A stretch of 64,000 nucleotides of DNA, taken from the NCBI GenBank assembly GCA_028715175.1, contig JAQUSJ010000002.1, forward strand, positions 22,285 through 86,284. The letters are read 5' to 3'. Below are positions 14,499 through 52,923 of this stretch, piece by piece. The position numbers and the translations under genes were made by a program. This DNA comes from Candidatus Daviesbacteria bacterium (GTDB taxonomy: Bacteria; Patescibacteriota; Microgenomatia; Daviesbacterales; UBA10151). How positions within the stretch are numbered: the first letter of the stretch is position 1; each line of letters opens with the position of its first letter. The notes below the pieces were generated by a model. That model ran no database searches and was not told where the DNA came from. It saw only the letters and a list, made by a program, of their open reading frames with translations.

Positions 14499-14607
14499 CC
14501 TTCAGCTATCAGTCATCAGTCGTCAGATAATTGCAATTTAAGTCTGAAAGCTGACAGCTGAGAGCGAAGCCGCGCCAAAGGCGGGCGAAGCGATACTGAC
14601 GACTACT
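14498..14607. repeat. heptamer-array hairpin element, copy 3, with a nested GCGAAGC-type insert (14562-14595)
   Basis: 'ccttcagctatcagtcatcagtcgtcagat' ... 'agtctgaaagctgacagctga' + insert + 'ctgacgactactATG'. Confidence 0.8.
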
Positions 14608-15541: not shown

Positions 15542-15622
15542 CTTTCAGCTATCAGTCATCAGTCGTCAGACTGATATAATTTAAAAGTCTGAAAGCTGAT
15601 GGCTGAAGACTGACGACTATTT
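15541..15622. repeat. heptamer-array hairpin element, copy 4 (between def and fmt)
   Basis: 'gctttcagctatcagtcatcagtcgtcagac' - 'tgatataatttaaa' - 'agtctgaaagctgatggctgaagactgacgactattt' then ATG. Confidence 0.85.
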
Positions 15623-17803: not shown

Positions 17804-17877
17804 GCCGACATGGCTCAGTGGCAGAGCACGTTCTTGGTAAGAACGGGGTCGCGGGTTCAATTCCCGCTGTCGGCTCC
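17804..17877 (+). tRNA. tRNA-Thr (anticodon GGT)
   Basis: Acceptor GCCGACA/TGTCGGC, D GCTC/GAGC, anticodon stem CGTTC/GAACG, loop TTGGTAA, T-arm GCGGG-TTCAATT-CCCGC. Confidence 0.8.
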
Positions 17878-17897: not shown

Positions 17898-17955
17898 GCG
17901 GGAACAAGATCTTCGAGCGAAGCAAGAAGTAGACTTATTCCCGCTGTCGGCTCCA
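17898..17955 (+). repeat. partial duplicate of the tRNA-Thr(GGT) 3' end (T-stem plus acceptor 3' strand plus CCA) with a 39-nt insert in the T-loop position
   Basis: 'TTCCCGCTGTCGGCTCC' at 17865-17881 is repeated at 17938-17954, preceded by GCGGG...CCCGC. Confidence 0.6.
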
Positions 17956-25251: not shown

Positions 25252-25761
25252 ATGACTCGGCAAGACTTTGAAGAAGTAGTAAAAATTATCGGTGATGACC
25301 CGAAGTATCGCCATTTTATTGACAGAATAAAAAAAGATTTTGATGACAGTGAACATAAAGGCATTCCGGTTGCCATGCATGCTTATTTCATAAAAGAAGG
25401 GAAAGAAAGTATTGGTTTTTGTATTTTATCGCTATCCCCTCTTAAGATGAGGCGATGGGAAAAAACATTTATAGAAGAAGATTGGAAAACGCAAAATTTT
25501 CAGATTGATATTTCATCTTTTGAACTAATGTATCTGTACATTAAACCTGAATTTAGAAGAAAAGGAAAAGCTACCCAGTTATTTAATAAAGTTATCAAAC
25601 GTTCCAAAGTTTTGGGCATTAAATCAATTTATGCTTATGTAAGCGATACAGACAATGCGGCGCTGGAATTCTACCGCAAGAGCGGAGCAAAAATTATCCA
25701 TGATTTTTCCGATGAAACAGAAGGAATAAGCGCAGCTTTTATGGTATGGAAGTTGGAATAA
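25252..25761 (+). CDS. GNAT-family N-acetyltransferase
   Basis: 'RRKGKATQLFNKVI' acetyl-CoA-binding motif A region. Confidence 0.65.
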   Translation: MTRQDFEEVVKIIGDDPKYRHFIDRIKKDFDDSEHKGIPVAMHAYFIKEGKESIGFCILSLSPLKMRRWEKTFIEEDWKTQNFQIDISSFELMYLYIKPEFRRKGKATQLFNKVIKRSKVLGIKSIYAYVSDTDNAALEFYRKSGAKIIHDFSDETEGISAAFMVWKLE

Positions 25762-25776
25762 AGGGGTTGAACCCCT
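25762..25776. repeat. 15-bp palindrome AGGGGTTGAACCCCT (REP-like), copy 1
   Basis: Exact match, located between convergent genes. Confidence 0.8.
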
Positions 25777-25782
25777 AAAACG

Positions 25783-26292
25783 CTACTTTAAGGAGGCCAA
25801 GGTAGCCCTAGTTTTGATATCTTTGAGGGTTTTACCAACAGATCCAGTTGTAGCATGATCAGCGATAGGTTCGTCCCAGACCCCGCCGGCAATATTTGCT
25901 ATATCGGTAGCAGAAATAGCCACTCCAGCAGTTAAAGAGCTAGAAGAAACGATAGATTTTATAGTAACTTGATAATCCCCCAAAACACTTGTGAAAGGGC
26001 TTGTCTCATCGTCAGTGATGAGATTTCCGGCCACTGTCAAAGTATGATCAGCCTCCTGTGGCCTGATCTTCCAGCCGTATCTCAACACGATATAAGGAGA
26101 GATGACCTGTCCGCCTCCAATTGCCTGTCCGCCAATGGCCATTATAGGAAACCTAAATTTATTCATTAAAGGATCTGATAACCAATCTTCTTTGGCGTCC
26201 GAATATAAATCCACCACCACATCAAAGGAAGTTACCCCAGTGTTTAGGATAAATAACTTATTATTGGTATCATAAGTCATTTTTTGAGCCAT
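25783..26292 (-). CDS. hypothetical protein (169 aa); its N-terminal domain is paralogous to that of the 26871-28460 protein
   Basis: Shared motif 'YS..KE(D/E)W..D....NKF(R/K)FPI'; no signal peptide. Confidence 0.5.
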   Translation of the reverse strand: MAQKMTYDTNNKLFILNTGVTSFDVVVDLYSDAKEDWLSDPLMNKFRFPIMAIGGQAIGGGQVISPYIVLRYGWKIRPQEADHTLTVAGNLITDDETSPFTSVLGDYQVTIKSIVSSSSLTAGVAISATDIANIAGGVWDEPIADHATTGSVGKTLKDIKTRATLASLK

Positions 26293-26371
26293 TTGCTGTA
26301 ATTTTTAGCAGAAAAAAATCAATTAATCAACCGATAAAAAGAAAGTCTAAAAATATCAAACTATTCCTAAG

Positions 26372-26899
26372 TTATTTCAACCTGTCCCAAAAGCTTACTT
26401 TTTTGGATTGTTTCCTATTTTCCTGGACTTCTTCTTGTAAATCATTTTTAACCTGTTTGGTTTCGGCTGGAACCGGTACTTCCTCTTGAGGCGGGATTTC
26501 TTCCGGAGCCGCTTGCTGTTTTTTCTTTGCCTCCTGTACTTTCTCTGACAGCTTATTAGTTAAAAATTTCTTTTCTTTAGGAAGTTCTTTAGCCTCTTCT
26601 TTTAAGATTTTGTTCCAGTCGCTGTAAATGCTGGAGGTTCTTTTAACTACTACTAGAGGCGATTTTTCGTCTACATCCCACGTCTTGGCAAACATATTCC
26701 ATCCGCCAAAGTCCTCCTGTTGTTCCATATGTTCCTTGATTCTGTCGACGAAACTCATCAGGCCGGTTTCTTCCCTTGTGGCTTTATTGCCTCCTTCTAT
26801 CTCGGTTTGGAGTCGGAAGCAGAGGTAGCGGATTTGGCGTCTGGTGAGGTCCTCGTTTTTAGTCATTTTTTTAGGTTGGATTAGAGTAGTTCCTTTCAT
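26372..26899 (-). CDS. hypothetical charged protein (175 aa)
   Basis: ORF only; Lys/Glu-rich C-terminus. Confidence 0.4.
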   Translation of the reverse strand: MKGTTLIQPKKMTKNEDLTRRQIRYLCFRLQTEIEGGNKATREETGLMSFVDRIKEHMEQQEDFGGWNMFAKTWDVDEKSPLVVVKRTSSIYSDWNKILKEEAKELPKEKKFLTNKLSEKVQEAKKKQQAAPEEIPPQEEVPVPAETKQVKNDLQEEVQENRKQSKKVSFWDRLK

Positions 26900-28460
26900 C
26901 GTCAGCGTTGACCGTAATTGTCTGTCCGGTAGCGCGGGTAATGGTGTAAGTGGCCATCACCCAGGTAGCTCCGTTCAAGCCCTGCGCCACAATAGTTACA
27001 CCCGCATCGGTTCCTGCCGTGCGGCCACCCTGCACATTGTTGTCATAGTCGAAATCAAAGGCGATACTTGAAGCCGTAATCTGTCCGGTAATATCCGCAG
27101 AGGAGTTGTTCTTCACAATAATGGCAGAAGATGAATCAAAGTTACCGCCGGGATTAGTGGTAAAGTACATAGTGTATTTTGTATCAGCATCCGGTTCTGA
27201 AACTAAGTTAGAGCTAAAGTTCATATTACCAGCTGCAACGAACGGAAATGCCCGTTCTGTTGAAGTAACAGGAAGTCCGGTATTTGCATTTACTCCGCCT
27301 CCATCTACTGTAATATCACGGAATTTTATTGAGTTGGTCGAGTTGGTATTGAAACCGCTGATGTATAGTCCGCCTTTTGTCTTTAACGTATCACCAACGT
27401 ATTCCAGCAAAAGTTCAGCGACATTACCTTTCTCAACTAATCCACTTCGTTGATTAACTGTCGTTGAATCGTTAGCATTTATATCAGTAGTTTTACGAAG
27501 TTGTCTTTGTGCCCAGTTATAAATTTGTGTGTCTGTTCCATTATTAGCAGTAAGCAAACGGTTAAAAGCGTAATAGTTAGAACCAATTTGAACTTCTCCG
27601 TCGTAAGCTACCCAATCAGTTACACCAATATCCGTTGCTCGAGTTGCGCCGTTTGATGTTCCTCCGGCTGCTGTAAAGAACCAACGTCCGGTGTCATCTT
27701 TTACTACCGAAGCGGCGGGATAAACTGTGCTGTTTGCATAAGTAGTGAAACCCTTACCCTTTAGATAGTTTATCTTCATGCCGTTATAGGGTGGTGAGGC
27801 AGCGTCAAGGGTAGCATCGGCAATTGTAATTTTTAAATCGGTTGAGTTGGATAGAGGTAATTTGTAAAGAACTGGCTCTAAAGCTGAAATAGATTGTTCT
27901 GTTAATAGATTATATTCCGCATATAATTTACCTGTGCCGGAACCTGAAGCAATACGCAGAAACAGCTTTAAGTAGCCTGTGTAGTCTACCGGGCCGGTGG
28001 CGTTATAGATCATGATGGCCTCGTTTAGGTTTCCGGTTTTATTAAAGTTAGTGACACTTTGGTTATAGCCGATGATATTTTGGTAGGTGGCTTGGTCAGT
28101 GGAGGCGTCAAAGTTCCCTAGGGAAACGATACCGGCGTATTTATCTCCGGTGATTTCTTCCCAGCCGGCATCCCTGATGACATTTCTGGTAGTGGCGTCT
28201 GTCCAATCCCAACCATTAATCAGAATGCCATCAGTTTTGGTAAACATCTTGATTGGGAACTTGAACTTATTGAGGGCAGCATCAGTTTTCCACTCTTCCT
28301 TCAGGAAGGAGTAAACTGCCTGGAGGGTAACACCGGAAGTTGAACCTGGGGAGGCGTTACTTACATTACCGGTAGTAATGATCTGGATTTTTTTTGTCGT
28401 CGTATTAATAACGACATCAGTAGTTTGGGCTAGTCCGTCTGGGTCAACAATTTTTGCCAT
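26871..28460 (-). CDS. hypothetical large Gly/Thr/Asn-rich beta-structure protein (529 aa), no signal peptide; fibre / tailspike-like
   Basis: N-terminal domain paralogous to the 25783 protein; C-terminal motif '...NYSNPT' shared with the next gene. Confidence 0.5.
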   Translation of the reverse strand: MAKIVDPDGLAQTTDVVINTTTKKIQIITTGNVSNASPGSTSGVTLQAVYSFLKEEWKTDAALNKFKFPIKMFTKTDGILINGWDWTDATTRNVIRDAGWEEITGDKYAGIVSLGNFDASTDQATYQNIIGYNQSVTNFNKTGNLNEAIMIYNATGPVDYTGYLKLFLRIASGSGTGKLYAEYNLLTEQSISALEPVLYKLPLSNSTDLKITIADATLDAASPPYNGMKINYLKGKGFTTYANSTVYPAASVVKDDTGRWFFTAAGGTSNGATRATDIGVTDWVAYDGEVQIGSNYYAFNRLLTANNGTDTQIYNWAQRQLRKTTDINANDSTTVNQRSGLVEKGNVAELLLEYVGDTLKTKGGLYISGFNTNSTNSIKFRDITVDGGGVNANTGLPVTSTERAFPFVAAGNMNFSSNLVSEPDADTKYTMYFTTNPGGNFDSSSAIIVKNNSSADITGQITASSIAFDFDYDNNVQGGRTAGTDAGVTIVAQGLNGATWVMATYTITRATGQTITVNADDERNYSNPT

Positions 28461-28521
28461 AATTTCTCTTTATATTAATAATTGTCATAATTTAAACAAC
28501 TAGTCAATATATCAAATTTTT

Positions 28522-28567
28522 AGGGGTTGAACCCCTAAAGCCTTTAAAAACCTTTAGGGGTTTGAGT
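28522..28567. repeat. AGGGGTTGAACCCCT palindrome (copy 2) joined to a second hairpin CCCCTAAAG-N-CTTTAGGGG
   Basis: Sequence 'taggggttgaacccctaaagcctttaaaaacctttaggggtttgag'. Confidence 0.75.
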
Positions 28568-30137
28568 AGAAGGGATCAGTATCCAGCTGGACAGTTAAGG
28601 TGGTGTTTGAACTTGGGAGGGCGTAGTTATTAACTGTTTTAGATTGATAACCAGTAACATTATGAATATTGATATAAGTAGTAGTTCCTGCGCCGGAAGA
28701 ATAAGAATAAGTAGTAGAACCGTCGGTGATATTGTCTTCTGTAAAAAGAACTGATTCATCAGACGCTTTCACCACAGTCACCTCACAGTTTGCAGTTACT
28801 GCATTTCCATCGGCATCAACAATATTAATGATTAAATTTACCGAACTGGCCACCGTGGTAGTTGCCCCTGTTCCGTTACGATAAGAAATTACTCCACTCC
28901 CGCCTGAATAGTTAATAATAACCTCTCCGCTGGAATTATTATAGATAACCTCATTGCCGGTTGAACCATTGGAGGCGGCGTAACCAGTAAAGGTGTTGCC
29001 GGAGAATGAATATGTTCCGGCAGTATTTATCTCTATGGCATGATTTGAACCATCAGAAACAAAAGTGCAATTGGAAATATTGGTCAGGTTATTAGATAAG
29101 ATTGAAGCTGATGCTGTTGAATTTTCAAACCTGCAACCAGTGAATACCGCTCCGCCTTGAGTAACTAAGCCGCACCTGCGAAAAATAGTTGTGAGGATTG
29201 TTGAGTTAGACTGGAATACAAAAGTGTCCATATCGCTAAAGGTGCAGGTATCGAAGTTAACATCGGCATTATCGGTAACAGTAAGTTTGCCCTTGGAAGT
29301 CGTTCCTAAAGCGGTGATTTGGATATTTGTCCAATCAATCCTGCTGCTGGCATTTCTAATTTCAAACTCATTAAATCCCGATGTGACTCTGATGGTATCT
29401 TGAATAGTGATGGTCCTATTTGAATCCCTAAAATCAACTGCTGTTCCTGAAGTTCCCATTAAAAATAAACCTTGCTGAAGATATCCGCCAGCAATGACTT
29501 GGAAAAGTCCCCATCGATTATAGCCGTCCGTGGCATCATTGGCATCGTTTTTAGTTGCTGCTCCGGCAAAAGTAGCATAATTACTTGTTTCTCCACCTGT
29601 GACTTGTAAAAGTCTACCAAAGCGGATAGCATCAGTTCCAAATGGATTTCCTTTAGAAATAGTCACTAAGGTTTTAGCAACAGTGCCGAAATATTGTAAC
29701 GTTGAAGTAGGCGAGCCTTGAGTTGCCTGACTGGATACTGAAGGGTCAACAGCAACACAGAACCAGCCACCATAAGTATATGTATTGCTACCTTTGACAT
29801 ACCAAGCATTATAATTGCTTGAATCACTTCCCACGATAACACGAAGTCCTCCGTTTGCCTGCGAATCCAGAGTATTGGGACAGGCAAAAAATATCCAGAC
29901 AAAAACTGCAGCCGGGCTGGTAATTGTTTGTGGCGAGGCGGCAAGCGTTCCCATTCCGCCGATACCTCCGCCAGCAATAGCCATTGTTTTAGAAAAGCAA
30001 TATGACTTTTGAATAAAATAATCAGTTTCTGCCGAAGGCACACCTCCTCCTGTTGCTCCAGCAGGCTCACCCCAGGTTTCACCGCTTTCAGCCTCGACAA
30101 TATTTGTTAAATCTGTAGTATAACTAGGTGTTGCCAT
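28554..30137 (-). CDS. right-handed beta-helix repeat protein (527 aa), no signal peptide; tailspike / adhesin-like
   Basis: Repeated 'N(C/T)TF..G' and 'GNTFTG' beta-helix rungs; C-terminal '...FYSNP'. Confidence 0.5.
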   Translation of the reverse strand: MATPSYTTDLTNIVEAESGETWGEPAGATGGGVPSAETDYFIQKSYCFSKTMAIAGGGIGGMGTLAASPQTITSPAAVFVWIFFACPNTLDSQANGGLRVIVGSDSSNYNAWYVKGSNTYTYGGWFCVAVDPSVSSQATQGSPTSTLQYFGTVAKTLVTISKGNPFGTDAIRFGRLLQVTGGETSNYATFAGAATKNDANDATDGYNRWGLFQVIAGGYLQQGLFLMGTSGTAVDFRDSNRTITIQDTIRVTSGFNEFEIRNASSRIDWTNIQITALGTTSKGKLTVTDNADVNFDTCTFSDMDTFVFQSNSTILTTIFRRCGLVTQGGAVFTGCRFENSTASASILSNNLTNISNCTFVSDGSNHAIEINTAGTYSFSGNTFTGYAASNGSTGNEVIYNNSSGEVIINYSGGSGVISYRNGTGATTTVASSVNLIINIVDADGNAVTANCEVTVVKASDESVLFTEDNITDGSTTYSYSSGAGTTTYINIHNVTGYQSKTVNNYALPSSNTTLTVQLDTDPFYSNP

Positions 30138-30143
30138 AATTTT

Positions 30144-30167
30144 AGGGATTCAATTCAACCCCTAATG
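30144..30167. repeat. degenerate copy of the GGGG...CCCC palindrome (TTAGGGATTCAATTCAACCCCTAA)
   Basis: TTAGGG / CCCTAA arms immediately downstream of the RAYT-like gene. Confidence 0.5.
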
Positions 30168-30812
30168 TTCGATAATTACATTTTTAATTTTATGCAATTC
30201 TTTTGCATAATCTATCTGGTCTTCATGAAATGATTTCATTGCCTCCTGTGAAGGAAAATAGGATAATATCTCATTTTTGGAACAGCTAAATTCTGTATCT
30301 TTTCCTAGATAATCAGGATAACTTGACCAGGAATAATTATCCGGATTTTGAGTAAGTTCGGAAGAAACAGGATTTAAGTGAATATATCTGACAAGATGAA
30401 CAAATAAATTATCCGAAATCACAGAAACAGCTTTAAATCTACCCTGCATTAGCCCTCCAACTCTTTTATATTTTTGATTAAAAAAAAGAGTATAAGCATT
30501 GGTGATTTGCTTCATAAGTTTGGATATACCATTCTTGGTTTTTTGCTTAAGTAACAGGTGAAAGTGATTCGGCATGAGGCAGTATGCTATTAACTCTACT
30601 TCTTCAGATAAATTTTTGCTATATAGGCGCAAAGGTAAATCTGGATATTTTTTTAATACTTCTTTAAGAGGCCGGAGGTAAATAAAAAGGTATGCTTGGA
30701 AGAAATGATAATCTTTATCATCCAAAAAAATATCCCTTTTTTCTACGCCCCTGTTAAAAACATGATAATAAGAGTCTTCTGTGAAGCTTCTCACAACATA
30801 CTTGGATGGCAT
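30162..30812 (-). CDS. HuH-Y1 transposase of the IS200/IS605 TnpA superfamily, REP-associated tyrosine transposase (RAYT)-like
   Basis: HuH motif 'NHFHLL' and catalytic-Tyr motif 'YIHLNPV' (compare E. coli RayT 'HMHCIW' and 'YIYINPV'); flanked on both sides by the GGGGTTGAACCCC palindrome. Confidence 0.7.
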   Translation of the reverse strand: MPSKYVVRSFTEDSYYHVFNRGVEKRDIFLDDKDYHFFQAYLFIYLRPLKEVLKKYPDLPLRLYSKNLSEEVELIAYCLMPNHFHLLLKQKTKNGISKLMKQITNAYTLFFNQKYKRVGGLMQGRFKAVSVISDNLFVHLVRYIHLNPVSSELTQNPDNYSWSSYPDYLGKDTEFSCSKNEILSYFPSQEAMKSFHEDQIDYAKELHKIKNVIIEH

Positions 30813-30846
30813 AGAAACAGCTTATCATACTTTATCGAAGAAATAA

Positions 30847-30861
30847 AGGGGTTGAACCCCT
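30847..30861. repeat. AGGGGTTGAACCCCT palindrome, copy 4 (extended palindrome AAATAAAGGGG-TTGAA-CCCCTTTTATTT)
   Basis: Exact match, immediately upstream of the RAYT-like gene. Confidence 0.8.
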
Positions 30862-30869
30862 TTTATTTA

Positions 30870-31337
30870 TTATAAATCGTCGTTATCTTCTTTAGTAAAA
30901 GCATCATAGGGACCTTCTGTAAGGCTTTTATGAGCTTTCTTGGTAAACCCGATTAGTATATAAATAATTGCCGGAATAAGCAGTATCGCTCCGGTAAGAG
31001 CAAGCGAAATGGACCACTCAAGCGGAATTACTCTGGAATTTGAGGCCACATCCTGCAGGGCATAAAGTTGAATTAATGCTGCCAGAACAAAAAGAATTGC
31101 TCCTTTTGTCAATTTGCTAAGGTGTAAAAATGATAAAAACCAAAGCGGGGCCATAATCAGAGCAATACTTTTAATAATGATAGAGGTGGTGGTAAAAGTG
31201 TATTTTGATAAGATGTCGGGATCAAAAAAGTGGTATGGGGTTGCAAGCCTAAGCTTTAAAGGATTAACCACGGCATCAAGTACATAGGCAAAAATCAAAA
31301 GCCCTATTATGATAACCAGAATATATTCCTGTTTCAT
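30870..31337 (-). CDS. hypothetical polytopic membrane protein (155 aa)
   Basis: Four predicted TM helices. Confidence 0.45.
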   Translation of the reverse strand: MKQEYILVIIIGLLIFAYVLDAVVNPLKLRLATPYHFFDPDILSKYTFTTTSIIIKSIALIMAPLWFLSFLHLSKLTKGAILFVLAALIQLYALQDVASNSRVIPLEWSISLALTGAILLIPAIIYILIGFTKKAHKSLTEGPYDAFTKEDNDDL

Positions 31338-31340
31338 CGT

Positions 31341-32180
31341 TTAATCAAAGATAGCATCGAAGTAGCCATAAGTCAAATCTTTACGTTTTGGCCAGCCAGT
31401 ATCCGCATCAGTAAAGCCTGATGCCCCTTTTTTATATCTATAGTTTCCAGAACCGTCATCCTTCATGATAAACCAGGCCCCATCTTTATTAAGATAGCCA
31501 AAGTAAGTGTTGGGAGCATCGGAAGTTTCATCCATCTGGGTAATTTTGTAACCGTCGGTAGGTTGTTTCTGTGCAGGATTAATTTGTACACCACTAATAT
31601 CTTTTAAGGCAACAGTTCCCGGTCCTGGCACACTGCCAAAAAAGGCTGCCTGGGCTTTTTTGGCAAATATGGAAAATAAGAATAAAGATAATCCAGCCGC
31701 ACTGATAAGTTTAAGAAACTGTCTTCTGTCAACATCTATCCTTGGAAGCTTTGTTGGTTCATCTTCATGTTTAACTTTTCTTTTAAGTTGTTTTAGTTTC
31801 TTTGGTTCAAGTATGATAGCGGGAATATTAATAGCCTGTCTTTTCTTAGGCAGTACTTGTAGAATAAAGTAGCCCGCAAGAGGTAAAAAGATAATACCAC
31901 TTATCATCTGGGAGATATTTTTGGCTCCAACCAGACCGCTGATAGTCATAATTGCTACAACAATAAAGCCATAGTAAAGATCCAAAGTGCTTAATGGTTT
32001 TTGAAATGGAAATGAAAAACGGTAACCATTTATCTTTCCCAAGAATAAACTAAGAAAATAAACAGTTATTGGAAGGAAAAGTACCAAGGGAATAACCGAG
32101 GCTGTTTGGGCGCTGAATGCTGCGCCAAGTGTGAGTAAAATAACCAGCAATAGACAGTAATAAAAAAGCAGATTTTTCAT
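31341..32180 (-). CDS. hypothetical membrane protein with an internal twin-arginine-like motif (DRRQFLKLISAAG...AQA) and a C-terminal extracytoplasmic domain
   Basis: N-terminal TM bundle, then an 'RRQFLK' h-region ending 'AQAA', then a ~100-aa domain. Confidence 0.45.
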   Translation of the reverse strand: MKNLLFYYCLLLVILLTLGAAFSAQTASVIPLVLFLPITVYFLSLFLGKINGYRFSFPFQKPLSTLDLYYGFIVVAIMTISGLVGAKNISQMISGIIFLPLAGYFILQVLPKKRQAINIPAIILEPKKLKQLKRKVKHEDEPTKLPRIDVDRRQFLKLISAAGLSLFLFSIFAKKAQAAFFGSVPGPGTVALKDISGVQINPAQKQPTDGYKITQMDETSDAPNTYFGYLNKDGAWFIMKDDGSGNYRYKKGASGFTDADTGWPKRKDLTYGYFDAIFD

Positions 32181-32692
32181 TCTTTAGGCCCGCTATCCGC
32201 TACTTCCTTCAGAAACCTTCCAGCTACCCATCCGTTGGTTTCTGTTTTTGGTAAAACAATTTGATACCAACTCCCCTCTTTTTTAAGATAGCGGTAAACT
32301 TTATCAAATTCGATTTTACCGATTACTTTGGAAGAATAAGAATTGCTTTCATAAACATCTACACTTTGCCATTTTTTATCATTGATGGTAACAAAGCCGG
32401 ATAGAATTTTGGAGCTGTCTGATGCCTCTTTGCTGCTGCCCAACACCTTTGTGCCTACAGTGTTAGTCGTTTCCGGTTTTAAACTATCCACTTTTTGGTC
32501 GGTTTCTTTTTGCGACTGCTGATAGGCTGCGATTTTTCCCAATTCCTGTTTCAAATTGTTAATAGCGCTTTCGGCTTTTTTATTTTGTTCCGCAGTACCC
32601 CTTATCGATGTAAAGGTAATAATGAGCAGAATTGTTGTTACCGAAGCTGTATATATTATTAGTAATCTAATTAGCTTTTGCATAAGTATCAA
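32177..32692 (-). CDS. membrane-anchored protein with a C-terminal bacterial SH3-like domain
   Basis: N-terminal TM helix; coiled coil; 'GWVAGRFL' SH3b-like C-terminus. Confidence 0.45.
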   Translation of the reverse strand: MILMQKLIRLLIIYTASVTTILLIITFTSIRGTAEQNKKAESAINNLKQELGKIAAYQQSQKETDQKVDSLKPETTNTVGTKVLGSSKEASDSSKILSGFVTINDKKWQSVDVYESNSYSSKVIGKIEFDKVYRYLKKEGSWYQIVLPKTETNGWVAGRFLKEVADSGPKE

Positions 32693-32701
32693 AATATTAT
32701 A

Positions 32702-33124
32702 TCAGACAATATTGCTGACGAATGTTCCAAAAAGGTTATGCCAGTAGCTAAAACTTAATATTTGTATAATACCCTTTTTTTGCATTAAAGTAGCGTTCAT
32801 CGCCTCCCTTAGGGCGATTTGACGGTCCCTGTTTACCCTGAGCATCCTATGAATAGTAATCAAATCAGCCTTTTGAGGCAGAAGAATTTCTATATCCGAT
32901 TGAAGGCTAGCCTGCAGGAAATCCAAAGCCACGGATTGACCAATTTCTCTGCTAAGTGCTACATAGGTTTCAACTACATTCTGATAGCTTGTATAAAGCT
33001 GATAACCTAACCTGGCCAGATTCTCCATGGATTGAACTGCCTTTTGATGGTTTGTATCGGACCGGTCAATAAAACTTACCAGAACCGAAGAATCAATAAA
33101 AATTTTTCTGCTTTGAATAGCCAT
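32702..33124 (-). CDS. PIN-domain protein (VapC-like toxin)
   Basis: 'IFIDSSVLV' N-terminal PIN motif with conserved acidic residues. Confidence 0.65.
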   Translation of the reverse strand: MAIQSRKIFIDSSVLVSFIDRSDTNHQKAVQSMENLARLGYQLYTSYQNVVETYVALSREIGQSVALDFLQASLQSDIEILLPQKADLITIHRMLRVNRDRQIALREAMNATLMQKKGIIQILSFSYWHNLFGTFVSNIV

Positions 33125-33213
33125 AATTAGTTATTAGTACGCTCGCTTCGCTCGCTGGTAGTTCATAGTTCATAGTATTTTCTACGAGCTACCAACTCAT
33201 AACTACGAGCTCA

Positions 33214-33495
33214 TTACGAACTTTCTAGCTTGCTCATATTCATTCCTATTCCTTTAAGCCTTAAAAGTGGATCGTTAAAATTAAATGTTTTGGTTTGGAT
33301 TGCAGTTTGAACTCTAACTTGTTTGGTATGTGGAATAAAATCCTGGGTAAAAGCTCGTAGATCATTTAGAGCTATTCTGACATTTCCACCTACCCGGACG
33401 GCTTTTAACTTACCTTCTTTGATGTAGCGCCTTACTGTTAAAGGATGTACTTTTAATGCTATAGCTGCCTGATTAACAGTATAAAATTCTTCCAT
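33214..33495 (-). CDS. excisionase-family / MerR-like HTH DNA-binding protein (putative antitoxin partner of the PIN protein)
   Basis: 'LKVHPLTVRRYIKEGKLKAVRVGGNVRI' HTH_17-type motif. Confidence 0.6.
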   Translation of the reverse strand: MEEFYTVNQAAIALKVHPLTVRRYIKEGKLKAVRVGGNVRIALNDLRAFTQDFIPHTKQVRVQTAIQTKTFNFNDPLLRLKGIGMNMSKLESS

Positions 33496-33590
33496 AGTCT
33501 ATTATGTAATCTTATACAAGTATATACATAGATATACATAACTTGTCAAGTGTTGACATTATATGAAATATTGTAGAACAATGAATTCAT

Positions 33591-33626
33591 ACTAGTTTTT
33601 AGAAATATTTGTCTGCTAAAACTAGT
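33591..33626. promoter_or_regulatory. inverted repeat ACTAGTTTTTAG-N13-CTAAAACTAGT in the tatA 5' region
   Basis: Hairpin / operator-like structure 25 nt upstream of the tatA ATG. Confidence 0.3.
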
Positions 33627-33650
33627 CAGAAGGAAGGGGGGTGATTTTGC

Positions 33651-33797
33651 ATGTTAAGTGGCATAGGCACAACTGAAATTGTTGTCGTAGGCCTGATCTT
33701 ATTGGTCTTATTCGGCGGCAAGAAACTACCCGAACTCGCAAGAGGTATGGGAAGCTCTATAAAAGAATTCCGAAAAGCAGCCAATGAGGATGCTTAA
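33651..33797 (+). CDS. tatA: twin-arginine translocase subunit TatA (48 aa; below the ORF-track size cut-off)
   Basis: '[43 protein letters not shown]'; SD-like 'aggaagggggg' upstream. Confidence 0.75.
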   Translation: MLSGIGTTEIVVVGLILLVLFGGKKLPELARGMGSSIKEFRKAANEDA

Positions 33798-33802
33798 ATC
33801 TT

Positions 33803-36800
33803 ATGGTAACTGCCCAATTTGCAAAAAAGGCATATTTGGCAATTATTCTAACTGTTGCAGCCTTAGTGTTTGTCAAAAGCACTGAGGCTGCTTCAGGTAA
33901 TACCCAAGTATGCAGTCCAGGTAGTAGCTGCAGTGTTGGAGAGTTCCTTTATGATGATTCTTATTCCCCAATTACTACTGCAACATGTACTATCACCAGC
34001 CGTTATCCTGACGAAACTCTATTTTTGGACTCGGTAGCAATGACCTCATCGACGAAAAATGACGGTTGGTACTCTAAAGATTTTACAGCACCTGCTACTA
34101 CCGGAATATATAGAACCCAAGTCTGCTGTACTCCTCTCGGCGGTGATAAACTTTGCCTGGATAAGACTTTTGAAGTCAAAACAGAGTCAACTTTAACTTC
34201 CGGTGACGTAACAAGTGCTGTTTGGGATACCACCAGAAGTGCCCATATTTCTTCCGGCAGTTTTGGTGAAGCACTTGTAAACGCGGTGCCTTCGGTCAAT
34301 GATGTTGCCGGTGCTGTTTGGGGATATTCCGGCAGAACCCTGAGCACCTTTGGCAGTTTAATTACCGATATCTGGACTAACCCAACCAGAACATTGAGCG
34401 GTTTTGGCACTTTAGTTGCCGATGTCTGGGCAAACGCCACCAGGACTTTAACAGGAGCTACCCTTTCAAGTGGATCTTTAGCCACCAAAAGCAATGTTGA
34501 TTCGGTTGCATCCGATGTCAGTAGTACCAAATCTGATGTCACTACTGTCAAAAGCGACGTCAGCACTATCAAATCCGATGTATCCGATCTTAAAACAGAT
34601 ATTTCCAGTCTCAAGAGTACATCAAGCACAACCAACATTACCAATATCCAAAACACTACCAACACAACCAATAATTTACTTGAACAGCTTATTAACAGGC
34701 CAATTATTGAGAATGAATTAGAAGAAAGTAATGTTACCACTACGGAATTGCAAACCAAACTTGAAAAATCCGACAGCCTGGCAAACCAGCTATTGACTTC
34801 CAGCGGATATGTCAAAAGCAAAACCAGTTTACTCAAAGCCAGGTGGAATAGCTTGGGGGAAGATGAGATTACAAAATCTTTGGGCCAGCTTGAGGCTGTA
34901 GTAGGCAAAGAAGATGAAACATCAGAGGCAAATTCTATATTCGGCCAATTAAATTGGATTACCGGGCAATGGGATTTACCCATCTCCTCTAAATTGTATG
35001 TTCAAAATAAAAAAATTGCCTTATCGCTCAAGAAAGTAAATTCGGCTCAACAGCTTAAGGTTTTGTCATCAGATTTGGATAATTTTATTAAATTGGTGGG
35101 TACTCAAAGCGATAGCCCAAAATCAAACACTTTGTTTGGTGCTCTAAAAGGTCAAAAAGAGCTTTTGTCCTTTCTTGATAGAAATTATACGGATGCAACT
35201 ACGTTGCTGTCAGATCTTACAAAAAATTCCAAGCCCCAAACAGACCTGGTAGGACAAATAAACAGCTTAAGCAAACAGGTTGCAACAGTAAACCAGTTGC
35301 CAAAGATGAATAAAACCATTTTAGCGGAGGCGGCTAATACTAAAATGGATCAAAAACAGCTTAAAAACAAAGCCCTTAGTTTAAGAGGGGTCGTTCAAGC
35401 AAACAGGCAATTACTTGCTCAAGGTCCAAATCAGCCTTTAAGCAGTCTGTGGCTGGAAGAAGGAAGCATTGTTTTTAAAACTCTAATCAGTAATCCTTCC
35501 AAATCAATCAGCCAAAAGATTCCACTTAAATATTATCTGCCAAAAGAAGTGACAAAAGAGAATATTACCAAAACGGACGAAGGATTAACTGTAAACTATG
35601 ATATGGAAAAAGACCAATATTTTGTCAGTGGAAATTTCACCATTGATCCAGGAGAAACCAAAACTCTTGCTGTAACTGTTGATGATTCTGCATTTTACAT
35701 AAATGATGCTGAAATCGCCACCATGCGCAAACAAGTAGAAGAATTATCAAAACCTCTTAATAATACTGCCTATTTTGCCCAGGGGGTAACTCTCAAAACC
35801 GATATAGATGCTTCTTTGGATAAAGTGGACAGTTTGCAAAAAAATAATACTACACCTGAGGCAAGAATCCGAAGCTACAGGGAAGCTCAAATTGAGTATA
35901 AGGTAGCCAAGGAAAAGCTGGAAAAATTAAAAGAGTTGGCTACCAGCGCCGGTTCTGTGGGCACATTATTTGGTTTTGTAGGTGGAGCGCAAACTTTGGC
36001 AGTTTGGGGATTAATCATTATCATGACAGCCGGATTTGTATTTTTAGCCTTATATATGCGCACTTTAAAGACAAACGAGCTTTACTTGGACCAAAGAAAC
36101 CAAAAACTTACTCCGATTGTAGACAGTTTTGAAAATTATGAAGAAACTCTAAATGAGGAAAAACCTCAACCTCTCCTCCACCCTAAAAAAAGATTTTATT
36201 TGGGCAAGCCAGTTCATTTAGCAGTAGTTATCATAGCAGTATGTATTATAGGAGGCGGCAGTGTATATGCCCTTGGGACTCTACGACAGAGACAAGTAAG
36301 GCATGAGATTGCACAAACAACTCCTCAAGGAGTGCTGGGAAGTTCTAACGAAAATATTGCTTCGGATTCATCCCGATTAGATCAGGATTCATACAGAGAG
36401 GTAACTATTCTGGTGCCGGATGACAGCACAGTAACTATACAATCCCAACCTTCCATAAACTCGCCTGTTTTAACCTCTTTAAAGGCCTCAAAAAAGGCAA
36501 AAGAGATCAAGCGAGAGGATATCTGGGTAAAAGTAGCTTTGCAAGATTCTGAAGCTAAATTTATTGAAGGCTGGGTAGATGGGGATTTTGTGGAAGAGGT
36601 TGAAAAGAAACAAAGCTTAGATTCTGATGAAGAACAAAAACCGCAAGGCGGTTTATTAGAAAACCAAAAAATAGTGGTTATAAATAATACTCCCACTGGA
36701 TTTTTAAGAGTCAGGAAGACGCCCGAGGGTGAAGAAATTACCAAGATAAGTCCGGGAGAACAGTATAATTTAGTTAAAGAAACGATAGGATGGGTGCAGA

Positions 36801-36856
36801 TTGTTTTGGAAGACGGTACTTCGGGCTGGGTATCCAAACAATATATCAGCTTCTAG
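33803..36856 (+). CDS. large secreted / membrane-anchored surface protein (1017 aa) with a Sec signal peptide, tandem peptide repeats, coiled coils, two C-proximal TM helices and two C-terminal SH3b-like domains
   Basis: Signal peptide 'AILTVAALVFVKSTEA'; ~16-aa 'TRTLSGFGTLV' repeats; 8-aa 'SDVSxxKS' repeats (24-bp DNA tandems at ~34497-34620); 'GWVQIVLEDGTSGWV' SH3b. Confidence 0.7.
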   Translation: MVTAQFAKKAYLAIILTVAALVFVKSTEAASGNTQVCSPGSSCSVGEFLYDDSYSPITTATCTITSRYPDETLFLDSVAMTSSTKNDGWYSKDFTAPATTGIYRTQVCCTPLGGDKLCLDKTFEVKTESTLTSGDVTSAVWDTTRSAHISSGSFGEALVNAVPSVNDVAGAVWGYSGRTLSTFGSLITDIWTNPTRTLSGFGTLVADVWANATRTLTGATLSSGSLATKSNVDSVASDVSSTKSDVTTVKSDVSTIKSDVSDLKTDISSLKSTSSTTNITNIQNTTNTTNNLLEQLINRPIIENELEESNVTTTELQTKLEKSDSLANQLLTSSGYVKSKTSLLKARWNSLGEDEITKSLGQLEAVVGKEDETSEANSIFGQLNWITGQWDLPISSKLYVQNKKIALSLKKVNSAQQLKVLSSDLDNFIKLVGTQSDSPKSNTLFGALKGQKELLSFLDRNYTDATTLLSDLTKNSKPQTDLVGQINSLSKQVATVNQLPKMNKTILAEAANTKMDQKQLKNKALSLRGVVQANRQLLAQGPNQPLSSLWLEEGSIVFKTLISNPSKSISQKIPLKYYLPKEVTKENITKTDEGLTVNYDMEKDQYFVSGNFTIDPGETKTLAVTVDDSAFYINDAEIATMRKQVEELSKPLNNTAYFAQGVTLKTDIDASLDKVDSLQKNNTTPEARIRSYREAQIEYKVAKEKLEKLKELATSAGSVGTLFGFVGGAQTLAVWGLIIIMTAGFVFLALYMRTLKTNELYLDQRNQKLTPIVDSFENYEETLNEEKPQPLLHPKKRFYLGKPVHLAVVIIAVCIIGGGSVYALGTLRQRQVRHEIAQTTPQGVLGSSNENIASDSSRLDQDSYREVTILVPDDSTVTIQSQPSINSPVLTSLKASKKAKEIKREDIWVKVALQDSEAKFIEGWVDGDFVEEVEKKQSLDSDEEQKPQGGLLENQKIVVINNTPTGFLRVRKTPEGEEITKISPGEQYNLVKETIGWVQIVLEDGTSGWVSKQYISF

Positions 36857-36859
36857 CTT

Positions 36860-36874
36860 AGGGGTTCAACCCCT
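36860..36874. repeat. AGGGGTTCAACCCCT palindrome, copy 5 (opposite orientation of the centre base)
   Basis: Exact match 4 nt after the stop of the 1017-aa gene. Confidence 0.8.
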
Positions 36875-38600: not shown

Positions 38601-39112
38601 GTTTACTGGAAAATACTGAATAGTTACAGATTTTTTTGGTAAGCTCCATCCAGACAAAAAAGACCGTGGTGCGATAAAAAATAGTAAAAAAAGTAATACT
38701 TTTTTATATATAGATATCTTAAGTTATACTTTGATATATTATCCTTCAACAATAATTTCAGGTACAATTCCAGCTCTTGCAGTTTAGCTACAATCTAAGA
38801 TATAATCCATAAATCGCCTTTGTCAAAAACTGTCATTTAGACACTTTTTGCAAGCGATCTCGCGCCAGAAGAAAGGAGGGCGCTCCGATTGGCCAAAAAG
38901 GGTAATCGAAATTTATTCATATTTCAATGTTCTTCCTGTAAAAACAGAAATTACACTGCTACCAGAAATACGGTAAACATTAAGGAAAAGCTCGCTTTAA
39001 ACAAATTTTGTAAACATTGCCGGAAAACCACTCCCCACAACGAAGTCAAGCTTTAACTTCTTTTCTGCTTATTGACTTTTAATTATCGAACCTACTACTA
39101 TAATCATATAAC

Positions 39113-42119: not shown

Positions 42120-43466
42120 ATGTCTCAAGATGAAGCTGTGCCACAGGAACACCCCAAAGAACATCACGATCATGCAATTTTAAAATTCCCGGAAGGATTT
42201 TTGTGGGGCACAGCCACTTCTGCTCATCAGGTAGAGGGAAATAATATTCACAGCGACTGGTGGGAGTGGGAACAAACTCATCAACCGCCCCATTTGCGCT
42301 CAGGAAAGAGTTGTGACCAGTACCATTTATATGAACAGGATTTTGAACTGGCCAAAGAGTTAAATCATAATGCTCACCGCTTATCTATTGAATGGTCCAG
42401 GATTGAGCCTATTGAAGGGCAATTTGATACAGCTGAAATTGAACACTACAAAAAAGTCTTAAAGGCTTTAAAAGACCGCAAACTAACAGTCATGTTAACT
42501 CTCTGGCACTGGACTTTACCGAAGTGGGTGGCTGATAAAGGCGGTTGGGAAAATGGGGCAACTGTTAAATATTTTGAAAGGTTTGTCAGAAGAATCGTTC
42601 CCGAGATCTCGGAATTCGTTGATTTATGGGTAACCTTGAATGAACCTGGAGTGTATATTTATGAAACATACATTGAAAGGATTTGGCCTCACTCAAAAAA
42701 AAGCTGGGTTGGACAAGTCAAAGCTTATTTAAACCTGGTTTCTGCTCACAAAAGAGTCTACAAATACCTGCACTCAAGCTTCCCGGCCGGTAAACCGGTT
42801 GGCGTTGCCAATAATATACTTTCTTTTGAAGTCTATCATAAACATTCCATCGTCGAACAAATGGCAGTTGCTTTAAACGATCTTTTTGTTAACCATTTGT
42901 TTTATTTCTTAACCCGGGGCAGCCATGATTTCCTGGGAATTAATTACTATTTTAATATCCGTCTCAAAGGCAATAATTTGATATCTCAGAATGTGGGTCT
43001 GACACAGCAAACTCATGAAGTCTCTGATTTAGGTTGGGAGATTCATCCCGAAGGCATCTTTGAAGTTTTAACCGACCTGTCTGATGATTTACCTATCTAC
43101 ATTACCGAGTGTGGAATTGCTTCCACCAATGACGACAGAAGAAATCGCTTTTTAATTTCTTATTTGCAAGAAGTAGCCAGAGCCATTAAAGCCGGAGTTA
43201 ATGTCAGAGGATTCTTTTACTGGTCGCTGCTGGATAATTTTGAATGGCATTTGGGCTTTGAACCCAGGTTTGGGCTGGTGGAAATAGATTATACCAACTT
43301 AGAGCGCCATATCCGACCTTCAGCGCTGGTTTATACGGACATTATTCAACACAACGGCATTCCCCACTCCCTCCTCCGGTTCATCGGGCACACAGTCCAG
43401 GCAGAAGAAGTTTTGGAAAAAAGACAAAAAGAGATAGAAAAGGAGATAGAAAAGAAAAACAAATAG
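42120..43466 (+). CDS. glycoside hydrolase family 1 beta-glucosidase
   Basis: 'FLWGTATSAHQVEG' GH1 N-terminal signature; 'TLNEP' acid/base and 'YITECG' nucleophile. Confidence 0.85.
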   Translation: MSQDEAVPQEHPKEHHDHAILKFPEGFLWGTATSAHQVEGNNIHSDWWEWEQTHQPPHLRSGKSCDQYHLYEQDFELAKELNHNAHRLSIEWSRIEPIEGQFDTAEIEHYKKVLKALKDRKLTVMLTLWHWTLPKWVADKGGWENGATVKYFERFVRRIVPEISEFVDLWVTLNEPGVYIYETYIERIWPHSKKSWVGQVKAYLNLVSAHKRVYKYLHSSFPAGKPVGVANNILSFEVYHKHSIVEQMAVALNDLFVNHLFYFLTRGSHDFLGINYYFNIRLKGNNLISQNVGLTQQTHEVSDLGWEIHPEGIFEVLTDLSDDLPIYITECGIASTNDDRRNRFLISYLQEVARAIKAGVNVRGFFYWSLLDNFEWHLGFEPRFGLVEIDYTNLERHIRPSALVYTDIIQHNGIPHSLLRFIGHTVQAEEVLEKRQKEIEKEIEKKNK

Positions 43467-43530
43467 CTTTCAGTCGTCAGTCGTCAGATTTTAAGTCTGA
43501 CAGCTGAAAGCTGATAGCTGACGACTATTT
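43467..43530. repeat. heptamer-array hairpin element, copy 5
   Basis: 'ctttcagtcgtcagtcgtcagat' - 'tttaa' - 'gtctgacagctgaaagctgatagctgacgactattt' then ATG. Confidence 0.85.
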
Positions 43531-44433
43531 ATGTCCCACATACCCTTTACCATAACAGCCTATTTTTTCAATGCCTTGGCAGTTTTAGCCAACAAATTTT
43601 TGCTTAATAAAACCATTCCAGATCCTTTAATTTACATCTTTTATATTAGCCTGATCTCTTTACTGGCAATTCTAGCTTTACCTTTTACCCATATTCCTAA
43701 TTTAGAAGCTTTTACCCAGGCTTCAGTGTCCACCATTCTTTGGACCGCTGGAGCGTATTTTATGTTTAAAGCCCTAAAAATCGGCCAGGTTTCCCGGGTC
43801 ATCCCAATTATCGGCACGCTTATTCCCCTGATCCTTTTGATCTTTGCCTCGCAAACTTATGCCATCTCACAGACCCAAACCTGGGCGGTTTTGATCCTGA
43901 CAGCAGGCATGATTTTTTTAACTATGCAGGATATTTTACAAGGAAGCTTAAATAAACGGGAAATTGTCTTTGAAGTTTTATCTGCTGTCAGCTTTGCCAT
44001 ATCCTACATTATTCTAAGACAGGCATATCTTCAGCTAGACTTTTTTTCTGTGTTGGTTTGGTCAAGATTAATCCTGCTTCCATTTATTCTCATAGTGCTT
44101 CTGATCCCGACTTTACGCAGAAAAATTATCACCCCTGCCGGCTTACAAATCAATTTTTTCTCTAAAGAAGGCCTGGTATTTTTGGGAGGGCAAGCCAGCG
44201 GGGCCATTTCGGAATTTTTGATTCTTTTCTCAATTTCTCTGGCAAATCCGGCTTTGGTAAATTCCTTGCAAGGTACTCAGTATGTATTTTTGTTTATCCT
44301 GGCCATATTTTTATCCAAAAAATACCCCGCTATTTTTCAGGAAAAATATAATATTCTGAATGTATCTTCTAAAGTTGTAGGGATAGGTTTAATAGGAATC
44401 GGCCTCTACTTACTGACATTATCCGGAAGTTAA
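43531..44433 (+). CDS. EamA/DMT-family transporter (10 TM)
   Basis: Two five-TM repeats with Gly-rich helices. Confidence 0.6.
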   Translation: MSHIPFTITAYFFNALAVLANKFLLNKTIPDPLIYIFYISLISLLAILALPFTHIPNLEAFTQASVSTILWTAGAYFMFKALKIGQVSRVIPIIGTLIPLILLIFASQTYAISQTQTWAVLILTAGMIFLTMQDILQGSLNKREIVFEVLSAVSFAISYIILRQAYLQLDFFSVLVWSRLILLPFILIVLLIPTLRRKIITPAGLQINFFSKEGLVFLGGQASGAISEFLILFSISLANPALVNSLQGTQYVFLFILAIFLSKKYPAIFQEKYNILNVSSKVVGIGLIGIGLYLLTLSGS

Positions 44434-51110: not shown

Positions 51111-51203
51111 TAGTAGCTATCAGTCATCAGCTCTCAGCTGTCAGACTTAATATCTGATGACTGATGACTGATGACTGATGACTGATGACTGATGACTGAT
51201 AAA
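51111..51203. repeat. heptamer-array hairpin element, copy 6; its right arm is expanded into a (CTGATGA)x6.4 tandem array
   Basis: 'tagtagctatcagtcatcagctctcagctgtcagac' - 'ttaatat' - 'ctgatgactgatgactgatgactgatgactgatgactgat'. Confidence 0.8.
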
Positions 51204-52899: not shown

Positions 52900-52923
52900 C
52901 CTCGTTTAAGCGAGGATTTTTTT

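Follow-up and report, generated by a model that had tools for sequence, protein, structure and literature searches.

A 64-kb stretch of the genome of a Candidatus Daviesbacteria bacterium (64,000 nt of contig JAQUSJ010000002.1, hereafter the window) raises the question of why a short palindrome recurs at gene ends around a single gene for a Y1 tyrosine transposase-like protein of the HUH type. The palindrome, referred to as P, is the 15-mer AGGGGTTSAACCCCT, and the gene, referred to as the Y1 gene, occupies 30162..30812 on the minus strand and encodes 216 aa. The original prediction regarded the two as a repetitive extragenic palindrome (REP) together with its REP-associated tyrosine transposase (RAYT) in a genome of the Candidate Phyla Radiation (CPR). 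Our analysis upholds one part of this view, a cognate pair of hairpin and Y1 protein of the RAYT-like TIRtron type, while the other part, a classical REP-RAYT system, is not borne out. We consider it probable that P is the cognate terminal hairpin, i.e. the inverted repeat, of a single-copy and vertically inherited Y1 gene of the Group 1 RAYT/TIRYT type, with the unit P-Y1-P as a 'TIRtron'. The link between P and the Y1 gene is itself an observation, which holds across Daviesbacteria and in more distant relatives, the palindrome co-varying with the protein.

Palindrome copies in the window

Overall, four exact copies of P are present in the window, at 25762, 28522 and 30847 (centre G) and at 36860 (centre C), and no match is obtained in 100 dinucleotide-preserving shuffles of the window. 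Besides them there are two degenerate copies, and all six lie within 11 kb around ORF 30162-30812; the 13-nt core of P has no further copy in the 64 kb with two mismatches allowed. Four sites placed randomly in 64 kb would all fall inside 11.1 kb with p ~0.02. Every copy in the window is intergenic and located at a gene 3' end, 0-17 nt from the stop codon. In shape P is a perfect 7-1-7 palindrome of 15 nt, or of 19-21 nt counting the A/T flanks, and when folded as single-stranded DNA (ssDNA) its copies give a stem of 6-9 bp with a 3-nt loop at -5 to -8.5 kcal/mol.

Two of the copies flank the Y1 gene directly. The exact one at 30847..30861 lies in the 5' flank, 35 nt before the ATG and 8 nt past the stop of a 155-aa gene; its stem is lengthened by the A/T flanks, and its ssDNA hairpin reaches -8.5 and -7.8 kcal/mol on the two strands. 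The 3' flank holds a degenerate copy, P' (TTAGGGATTCAATTCAACCCCTAA, 30142..30165), which overlaps the TAG stop of the Y1 gene and departs from P by a 5-nt duplication of TTCAA and a single G>A substitution. The other three exact copies are solo copies. The one at 28522..28536 is placed between the 3' end of a 527-aa gene and the 5' end of a 529-aa gene, and close to it a truncated second copy (CTTTAGGGGTTTGA, AGGGGTTtGAg, 28551..28564) overlaps the stop codon of the 527-aa gene. Here a second hairpin is found, in which CCCCTAAAG (28532-28540) pairs with CTTTAGGGG (28551-28559), the start of the truncated copy; the left arm of the truncated copy and the right arm and flank of the 28522 copy together give 9-11 bp with an 11-nt loop, and the minimum free energy structure of the minus strand at 28522/28551 takes this alternative pairing, at -11.6 kcal/mol. 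The copy at 25762..25776 separates a GNAT gene (25252-25761, plus strand) from a convergent 169-aa gene (25783-26292, minus strand). The last copy (36860..36874), the one with centre C, lies between an SH3-domain gene of 1017 aa and a convergent PrsW-like gene, whose stop codon it overlaps. These observations agree with the original prediction on the positions of the four exact copies and the opposite centre base at 36860, on the degenerate copy near 30144, on the second hairpin fused to the 28522 copy, and on the flanking of ORF 30162-30812 by two copies, of which that at 30847 is exact and that at 30142-30165 degenerate.

The Y1 protein

The product of the Y1 gene carries the two motifs first noticed in it, both confirmed in the 216-aa translation: NHFHLL, in which NHFH (residues 82-85) is the HuH motif, and YIHLNPV with the catalytic Tyr143. 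A further motif, WSSY, is found at 162-165. Pfam identifies Y1_Tnp (PF01797) at 3.4e-10, and on NCBIfam the RAYT model NF047646 is the best one with 55.8 bits, compared with 15.7 bits (cutoff 55) on the IS200 model NF033573. A profile of 27 homologues, in which the HuH histidines, Tyr143, the NP following it and WSSY are conserved, reaches ISDra2 TnpA (E 1.2e-3) and E. coli TnpA-REP 4ER8 (E 0.063). The AlphaFold2 model of the protein (pLDDT 89.8, pTM 0.88) has a short, helical C-terminus (165-212), and its best PDB match by Foldseek is 4er8_A, a RAYT bound to a REP hairpin (E 1.8e-6), with IS608 and ISDra2 TnpA next. Sequence and predicted structure together support a Y1 HUH enzyme on the RAYT side of the family and not a canonical IS200 enzyme. 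The RAYT-like identity proposed at first is sustained by the Y1_Tnp match, the higher score on the RAYT than on the IS200 model and the 4ER8 fold, but the score stays below the curated RAYT cutoff of 80.

The family is a large one, with more than 7,800 close matches, and its 50%-cluster representatives number 25,368 at E<=1e-3, 11,376 at E<=1e-10 and 313 at E<=1e-30. The best matches whose organism is named by the source belong to CPR lineages. Our literature search found no paper describing this Y1 family in CPR, and a Saccharibacteria Tn-seq paper does not mention the Y1 gene.

A lone Y1 gene with a hairpin at each end resembles IS200, and one may ask whether the unit is an autonomous IS200-like insertion sequence (IS) of ~0.75 kb, hairpin-tnpA-hairpin, that is still transposing and has left the solo copies of P as remnants of old insertions. 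In an orthologous locus described below, a decayed copy beside the intact one suggests local movement or duplication; Y1 relatives occur on plasmids; and Group 1 has been rated the most IS-like RAYT group apart from Group 6 (Bertels et al., PMC5581495). Even so, we find this explanation very unlikely. The Y1 gene is single-copy, with no second copy in the 64 kb, its database clusters mostly amount to one contig each, and it sits in the same chromosomal neighbourhood in species whose Y1 proteins are 24-30% different. As to a canonical IS200/IS605 element with tnpB, named in the original prediction as an alternative, the protein has Y---NP and not the Y---Q of IS200, is 216 aa and not ~150 aa long (PMC6006769) and fails the IS200 model (15.7 bits against 55), and a tnpB-like gene is absent among the Y1 neighbours. 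What the unit shares with IS200, IS608 and ISDra2 is the Y1 HUH core, a hairpin at each gene end and, presumably, a single-strand 'peel and paste' chemistry. Unlike these elements, it has a longer protein with Y---NP, no tnpB and a single copy in a conserved neighbourhood, and its end hairpins are identical perfect palindromes whose relative orientation is not fixed.

Conservation of the locus in Daviesbacteria

We then compare the locus with those of three further Daviesbacteria species, represented by loci L002-L005, L006-L008 and L179. Their Y1 proteins are 70-77% identical to that of the window (70-76% for L002 and L006). The gene order SH3-279-155-Y1-...-529-175-169, where the numbers are protein lengths, is kept in L002 and L006, with Tat genes beyond the 529/175/169 block, while in L179 only the upstream SH3-279-155 genes can be mapped. 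Judged from sequence comparison, the Y1 gene appears to be vertically inherited in Daviesbacteria, in the same neighbourhood in the three further species.

The palindrome is kept together with the gene. An identical 13-mer of P is located 26 nt before the Y1 ATG in the Daviesbacteria orthologues, and in L006 and L002 a second copy, intact or with one mismatch, follows the Y1 stop at a distance of 9-12 nt, both flanking copies being intact in L006. The intergenic DNA around the 13-mer has diverged between these species, the 13-mer itself being exact. On the whole, a copy at the position orthologous to 30847 is found in seven loci (L002, L006, L171, L177, L179, L180 and L111), one before the 529/536/525-aa orthologue (the 28522 position) also in L002 and L006, and one after the last 169-aa gene (the 25762 position) also in L002. 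The junction at 36860 has no P counterpart in L002 or L006.

Palindromes flanking Y1 homologues in other lineages

A scan with WAGGGGTTSAACCCCTW, taking one genome per species, gives matches in at least 119 tiles. Among the matches listed, about 20 tiles are labelled CPR and about 22 are low-GC metagenome-assembled genomes (MAGs) labelled 'uncultured Gammaproteobacteria', a label that is unverified; in at least 10 of these tiles a Y1 homologue (31-59% identity) adjoins P or lies within a few kb. P stands beside Y1 homologues in MAGs of Patescibacteria, Saccharibacteria, Paceibacterota and Parcubacteria, again among the matches listed, and in those of the last three groups the Y1 gene has one copy immediately before it and a second some 500-560 nt inside it.

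The association does not depend on the particular letters of P. Eighty metagenomic loci with homologues were examined, 66 of which have enough flank. The feature looked for was one palindrome, with arms of 5 bp or longer, that recurs identically within the 100 nt before the gene and the 90 nt after it. Such a palindrome is present on both sides of the Y1 gene in 44 of the 66 loci. Of 370 further genes in those loci that encode 150 aa or more, 4 pass the same test, namely three second Y1 paralogues with palindromes of their own and one Fic gene, flanked by the Daviesbacteria P; without the paralogues the count is 1/367. The palindromes are specific to lineages, and include GGGGTCAGACCCC, GAGGTTCAACCTC, AAGGTCAGACCTT, CCACCTTCGAGGTGG, CACCCTTGGGGTG and CCTGCAGGGCCAGGCCCTGCAGG. 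Among protein pairs of at least 60% identity, 27 of 28 have the inner arm in common, compared with 8 of 854 pairs below 50% identity. The flanking and the co-variation of palindrome with protein form the pattern expected of an enzyme and its recognition hairpin.

This bears directly on another explanation, according to which P is a host element unrelated to Y1, such as a terminator, an mRNA 3' hairpin or a transcription-factor operator, reused in this operon cluster. Its attraction is plain, as all copies of P stand right behind stop codons, T-rich tracts follow the 30847 copy on both strands and the 25762 copy on the minus strand, where they are picked up by or resemble matches of a terminator scan, and dimeric DNA-binding proteins typically have perfect 7-1-7 palindromes as their sites; an HTH_17 gene is also nearby. 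However, terminator-like sites are no commoner in the window than in shuffled sequence, and the 28522 and 36860 copies are without a T tract. P is confined to 25.7-36.9 kb and absent from the other 53 kb, where gene ends have other hairpins or nothing. A generic terminator, which the original prediction had kept in mind as something occurring at most convergent gene ends of the genome, is ruled out by this absence and by the different hairpin family at the other gene ends. Moreover, the 13-mer is exact between species at 70% protein identity though the intergenic DNA is otherwise unconserved, and across the 44 loci the palindrome goes with the Y1 gene and changes along with it. We regard a host element of this kind as extremely unlikely. 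A search of the window against Rfam returns tRNAs only, with no known RNA family at P.

Several further observations were made on these loci. A palindrome at about codon 165-175 of the Y1 frame occurs in L179 (10001-10513), L180, L080, L114 and L123, where either the Y1 protein is truncated after WSSY or the palindrome is translated in frame as part of it; the final ~50 residues of the 216-aa protein accordingly look dispensable or variable. Two divergent Y1 paralogues, of 44-70% identity to the nearest query, are found within 3-10 kb of each other in six loci (L205, L222, L231, L233, L238 and L249), and where the flanks are readable each has a distinct palindrome, for example CACCTTAAAGGTG and CACCTGGAAGGTG in L238. 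Tandem or inverted doublets of the palindrome, 0-25 nt apart, are seen in L064 (5089-5124), L069 (7234-7267), L133 (4475-4506), L171 (4922-4959) and L174, in the last of these on both sides of Y1. Two related palindrome types, GGGGTCCGACCCC and GGGGTTGAACCCC, are adjacent in a Curtissbacteria MAG. Such doublets recall REP dimers.

Other matches of the scan have a different background. In Desulfovibrio sp. EPI_MAG_00104 the 17-mer core lies inside a repeat of ~65 nt (...GGGGTTTCCAAAGGGGTTCAACCCCTTTGGCCGCCGGAGGCAATACTACTCT) that is found on at least 21 tiles (L055, L065, L075-L077, L089, L093, L097, L098, L101, L106, L113, L122, L126, L131, L136, L139, L143, L160, L169 and L170) and is a genuine high-copy element; these tiles yielded no Y1 homologue. 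Several unrelated phyla have the palindrome in a similar context, ...CATCAAGAAGGGGTTGAACCCCTTTATTT... (L081, L082, L088, L090, L094 and L100, and as its reverse complement in L061, L078, L083 and L147), which looks like a conserved coding motif (~...IKKGLNPF...) and not a hairpin, and forms a background in palindrome searches. The Bacillaceae matches are hairpin apexes of terminators, unrelated to the Y1-linked P, and 43 single, unclustered matches on viral contigs are likewise set aside as background.

Comparison with known Y1 systems

P is not a classical REP, because it has no GT[AG]G foot, is short and perfect, and is low-copy and local. The 5' GTAG-type tetranucleotide named in the original prediction as a thing to check is missing: neither GTAG nor GTGG stands beside any copy of P in the window or in the orthologous loci, the flanks being WWA/TWW (TTA, AAA ... 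TAA, TTT). The classical identity fails also on the other counts, since P is a perfect palindrome of 15-19 nt in 4+2 local copies, with none in the other 53 kb, while classical REPs are imperfect, 20-40 nt long and dispersed in tens to hundreds of copies. Among the matches listed, a CPR genome has at most three tiles, compared with 21 for the Desulfovibrio MAG. In addition, the Y1 protein here falls under the cutoff of the curated RAYT model. What the system here has in common with the classical REP/REPIN-RAYT systems (E. coli YafM/TnpA-REP, 4ER8; Groups 2 and 3 of Pseudomonas) is a single-copy, apparently vertical Y1 HUH gene with its own palindromes, palindromes just downstream of genes, co-evolution of protein and repeat, a separate palindrome for each of several paralogues where a genome has more than one, and 4ER8 as the best structural match.

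A closer counterpart is found among the described Y1 proteins. In the classification of Quentin et al. (2018, PMC6006769), TnpAY1 subclass 2.1 has the HuH motif NHVH or NH[YF]H, the Y motif YIELNP or Y[IV]HLNP, a median length of 238 aa and a C-terminal HTH-like domain (Bac_DnaA_C, HTH_23 or HTH_28) that is heterogeneous in 2.1.2, and no REP-like structures were found for it. The same authors equate it with the Group 1 RAYTs of Bertels et al. (2017, PMC5581495), who assign the Group 6 RAYTs to the IS200 family, and with most TIRYTs of Di Nocera et al. (2013, PMC3733652). On either side of a TIRYT gene stand inverted repeats that have no relation to REPs of the GTAG kind; some of these repeats are self-complementary, many though not all share GGGGWSAS, and sometimes they form small families ('TIRtrons') of single repeats, dimers or groups (PMC3733652).

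Compared with GGGGWSAS, GGGGTTGA/GGGGTTCA of the window (GGGGTTSA...) agrees at 7 of 8 positions, with T for S at position 6, and an exact match, GGGGTCAG, is present in L173, with a homologue of 56% identity, and in a Rhodospirillum rubrum plasmid relative. This is one of two plasmid Y1 relatives of about 30% identity, which have a YIELNPV signature and share WSSY with the protein of the window; it is flanked by TTAAAAGGGGTCAGACCCC and GGGGTCTGACCCCTTTTAA (palindrome GGGGTCAGACCCC). The other one, on a P. aeruginosa plasmid, has 20-nt inverted repeats that start with AGGGGACAG and contain GGGGACAG, and GGGGWSAS fits here too. On sequence grounds (the motifs, the flanks, and ~30% identity plus WSSY with the plasmid relatives), P-Y1-P would be better filed under Group 1 RAYT, TnpAY1 subclass 2.1 and TIRYT-TIRtron than under the classical REP-RAYT systems. 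It resembles that type in its RAYT-like Y1 protein, which exceeds 200 aa and has the motifs NH[YF]H and Y[IV]HLNP, in its low gene copy number, in the position of the gene between inverted repeats unrelated to GTAG REPs, and in a flanking repeat that forms a small family, as some TIRtron repeats do. It differs in its host, Daviesbacteria of the CPR, a group not named in those surveys; in its 216-aa protein, with no Bac_DnaA_C or other helix-turn-helix (HTH) C-terminal domain detectable by Pfam; in the repeat, which is the minimal perfect palindrome GGGGTTSAACCCC; and in that the identical palindrome is kept across several CPR classes and its solo copies delimit neighbouring genes.

Since the TIRYT/TIRtron type has already been described outside CPR, the find is less surprising than was assumed at first. 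Its meaning is that the RAYT-like TIRtron design is now placed in CPR, the same design in a new host group, and in a Y1 family that is large and strongly conserved there and annotated only as 'transposase'. It adds protein-hairpin co-variation for a subclass whose systematic survey reported no associated palindromes, and the co-varying pairs offer biochemistry a collection of enzymes with their cognate substrates. As to CPR annotation, these Y1 genes are probably not active insertion sequences, and the short gene-end palindromes near them are not ordinary terminators.

Possible action of the Y1 protein on the palindrome

By analogy with E. coli TnpA-REP and the TnpA proteins of IS608 and ISDra2, the Y1 protein would bind P as a hairpin of 6-9 bp with a 3-nt loop on ssDNA, for example at the replication fork, and would cut and rejoin DNA beside the hairpin through Tyr143 and a metal bound by the HUH motif. 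The solo copies 4-17 nt behind neighbouring stops might be products of Y1 activity or of recombination between copies, and might persist as they also serve as 3'-end hairpins.

The upstream copy may have one more role. In L002, L006, L177, L179, L180 and L111, 17 nt separate the centre TTGAAC of P from a TAnnnT box (TATAAT in L177), and a further 6 nt separate the box from the ATG, a spacing that suggests, from sequence, that the upstream P doubles as the -35 element of a leaderless Y1 promoter. With P as the -35 box, the Y1 protein could repress itself. The upstream copy of the window is off this pattern, its centre base being C and its distance to the ATG 35 nt, with TATGAT standing 11 nt ahead of the ATG.

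Some observations weigh against P as a terminal hairpin on which the Y1 enzyme acts. The two strands of P differ by one loop nucleotide only, the centre base, and among the family loci the two flanking copies are in the 'same' relative orientation about as frequently as 'inverted'; a near-strand-symmetric P with free orientation would equally fit recognition of double-stranded DNA (dsDNA) by a dimer. In the L002 lineage (P0021; L002-L005; 14 contigs from several samples) the Y1 protein has NSFH for NHFH and K for N in the NP motif, and the L002 locus holds five near-perfect copies of P despite the Ser in place of the first HuH histidine, so that the conservation of P may not depend on catalysis. 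In the window itself the 3' flanking copy is degenerate, and the 5' copy differs from that of the relatives in spacing and centre base. Finally, Pfam at E up to 0.1 finds Y1_Tnp alone in the protein, with no C-terminal HTH-like domain. In view of the one-base strand difference, the unfixed orientation and the Ser in the HuH motif of L002, the Y1 protein may recognize dsDNA, or may have a role without catalysis.

Gene units between the palindromes

The genes next to Y1 are also delimited by the palindromes. In the window, the 527-aa gene (28554..30137, minus strand) forms a unit bounded by P' and P, and a conserved block of 529, 175 and 169 aa (25783..28460, minus strand) has P at both ends. 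Neither the 527-aa protein nor the block has a Pfam or PHROG match. The block keeps its order in L002 and L006 at 60-76% identity. By tblastn, relatives of the 527-aa protein (26-46% identity) occur at differing places of the P-delimited array in L002, L006 and L179. A prophage or tail-fibre origin of these genes was set aside, with no match in PHROG or Pfam, and paralogy of the 527- and 529-aa proteins is not supported (BLASTP E 0.39; only the C-terminal YSNP in common). Beta-helix repeats may be present in the 527-aa protein. Both proteins (28554-30137 and 26871-28460) end in YSNP-stop, and the truncated palindrome copy includes the codons for NP and the stop in the case of the 527-aa gene.

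The P-delimited and co-oriented units that follow the conserved 155-aa gene differ in content and order among the four Daviesbacteria species, and the Y1 gene changes its place in the array from species to species. The window has Y1, then 527, then 529-175-169; L002 has Y1, NYN-645, Fic and 536-169-169; L006 has a decayed Y1, 545, Y1 and 525-162-169; and L179 has ...338, ...789-69-107 and a truncated Y1. The decayed module of L006 (2483-2695) consists of a P with one mismatch, 26 nt, the first ~40 Y1 codons and a variant palindrome, GGGGGTTGGACCCC, and both its palindromes are followed by GTATCG; the Y1 stub is 79% identical over the first 34 aa, and is located one gene (545 aa) upstream of the intact P-Y1-P.

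Such an arrangement invites the idea that P serves for recombination, the Y1 enzyme cutting out cassettes of 'gene + hairpin' at its copies and inserting them again via ssDNA in an integron-type array, with Y1 itself as one cassette. In the four species every P stands 4-17 nt after a stop codon and the units between vary; the Fic unit has an exact P at each end; a decayed P-Y1-P remnant is kept one unit upstream of the intact one in L006; and solo copies within a few kb are also present at about 8 of the 44 other loci. However, the comparison covers four related genomes, where ordinary indels, duplication and homologous recombination between repeats would produce the same pattern. In most family members just two flanking copies are seen in 20 kb, the enzyme of L002 is without one HuH histidine, and the 529-175-169 block is stable. 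We judge this cassette activity to be rather unlikely. Compared with integron attC arrays, the likeness lies in a folded hairpin at the 3' end of promoterless-looking, co-oriented units whose content varies between relatives; the difference is that the enzyme is a HUH Y1 nuclease and not a tyrosine recombinase, and that the sites are identical 15-mers, not variable attC. The analogy is one of function only, and no excision junctions or circular forms were seen, the data allowing no search for them.

A more general form of the idea is that in Patescibacteria a fixed Y1 HUH enzyme and one short hairpin make up a HUH-based functional analogue of the integron, by which units are added, lost and reordered via ssDNA; this is a speculation to which we give a low probability. 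If true, such an analogue would diversify a gene block of unknown function next to type II secretion/pilin-type genes, and exchange of gene units mediated by the palindromes would offer very small genomes a new way of varying their gene content locally. For P itself, the terminal hairpin of a TIRtron-like Y1 gene is the reading that we prefer.

Other repeats in the window

Besides P, a second family of intergenic repeats is present in the window. It consists of long imperfect hairpins built of 7-nt units (CAGYYNT on one arm, ANRRCTG on the other), with -30 to -45 kcal/mol as RNA. Ten loci are found in the 64 kb, none of them between 17 and 43 kb: 2310-2393, 6151-6226, 14491-14561, 15536-15625, 43461-43533, 51111-51204, 52820-52903, 53447-53529, 62021-62064 and 62383-62441; one locus adds a (CTGATGA)n run. 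They are absent from the orthologous loci L002 and L006, and no enzyme that goes with them was found. It is this family, and not the GGGG palindrome P, that is the REP-like high-density repeat of this genome. A third palindrome, AATCCGCCAGCTGGCGGAC, occurs at 5622-5640, 15153-15171 and 16121-16139, two of the copies being exact and one 89%, all inside predicted ORFs. The last 18 nt of the tRNA-Thr(GGT) gene, ATTCCCGCTGTCGGCTCC (17860-17877), are repeated exactly at 17937-17954, 60 nt downstream of the tRNA, a duplicate of the kind that results when a mobile element integrates into a tRNA gene. Finally, a 72-nt inverted repeat with 85% complementarity joins 38808-38879 and 59460-59531; paralogy of the gene at 58340-59509 at the protein level does not account for this repeat, whose arms lie 20.6 kb apart.

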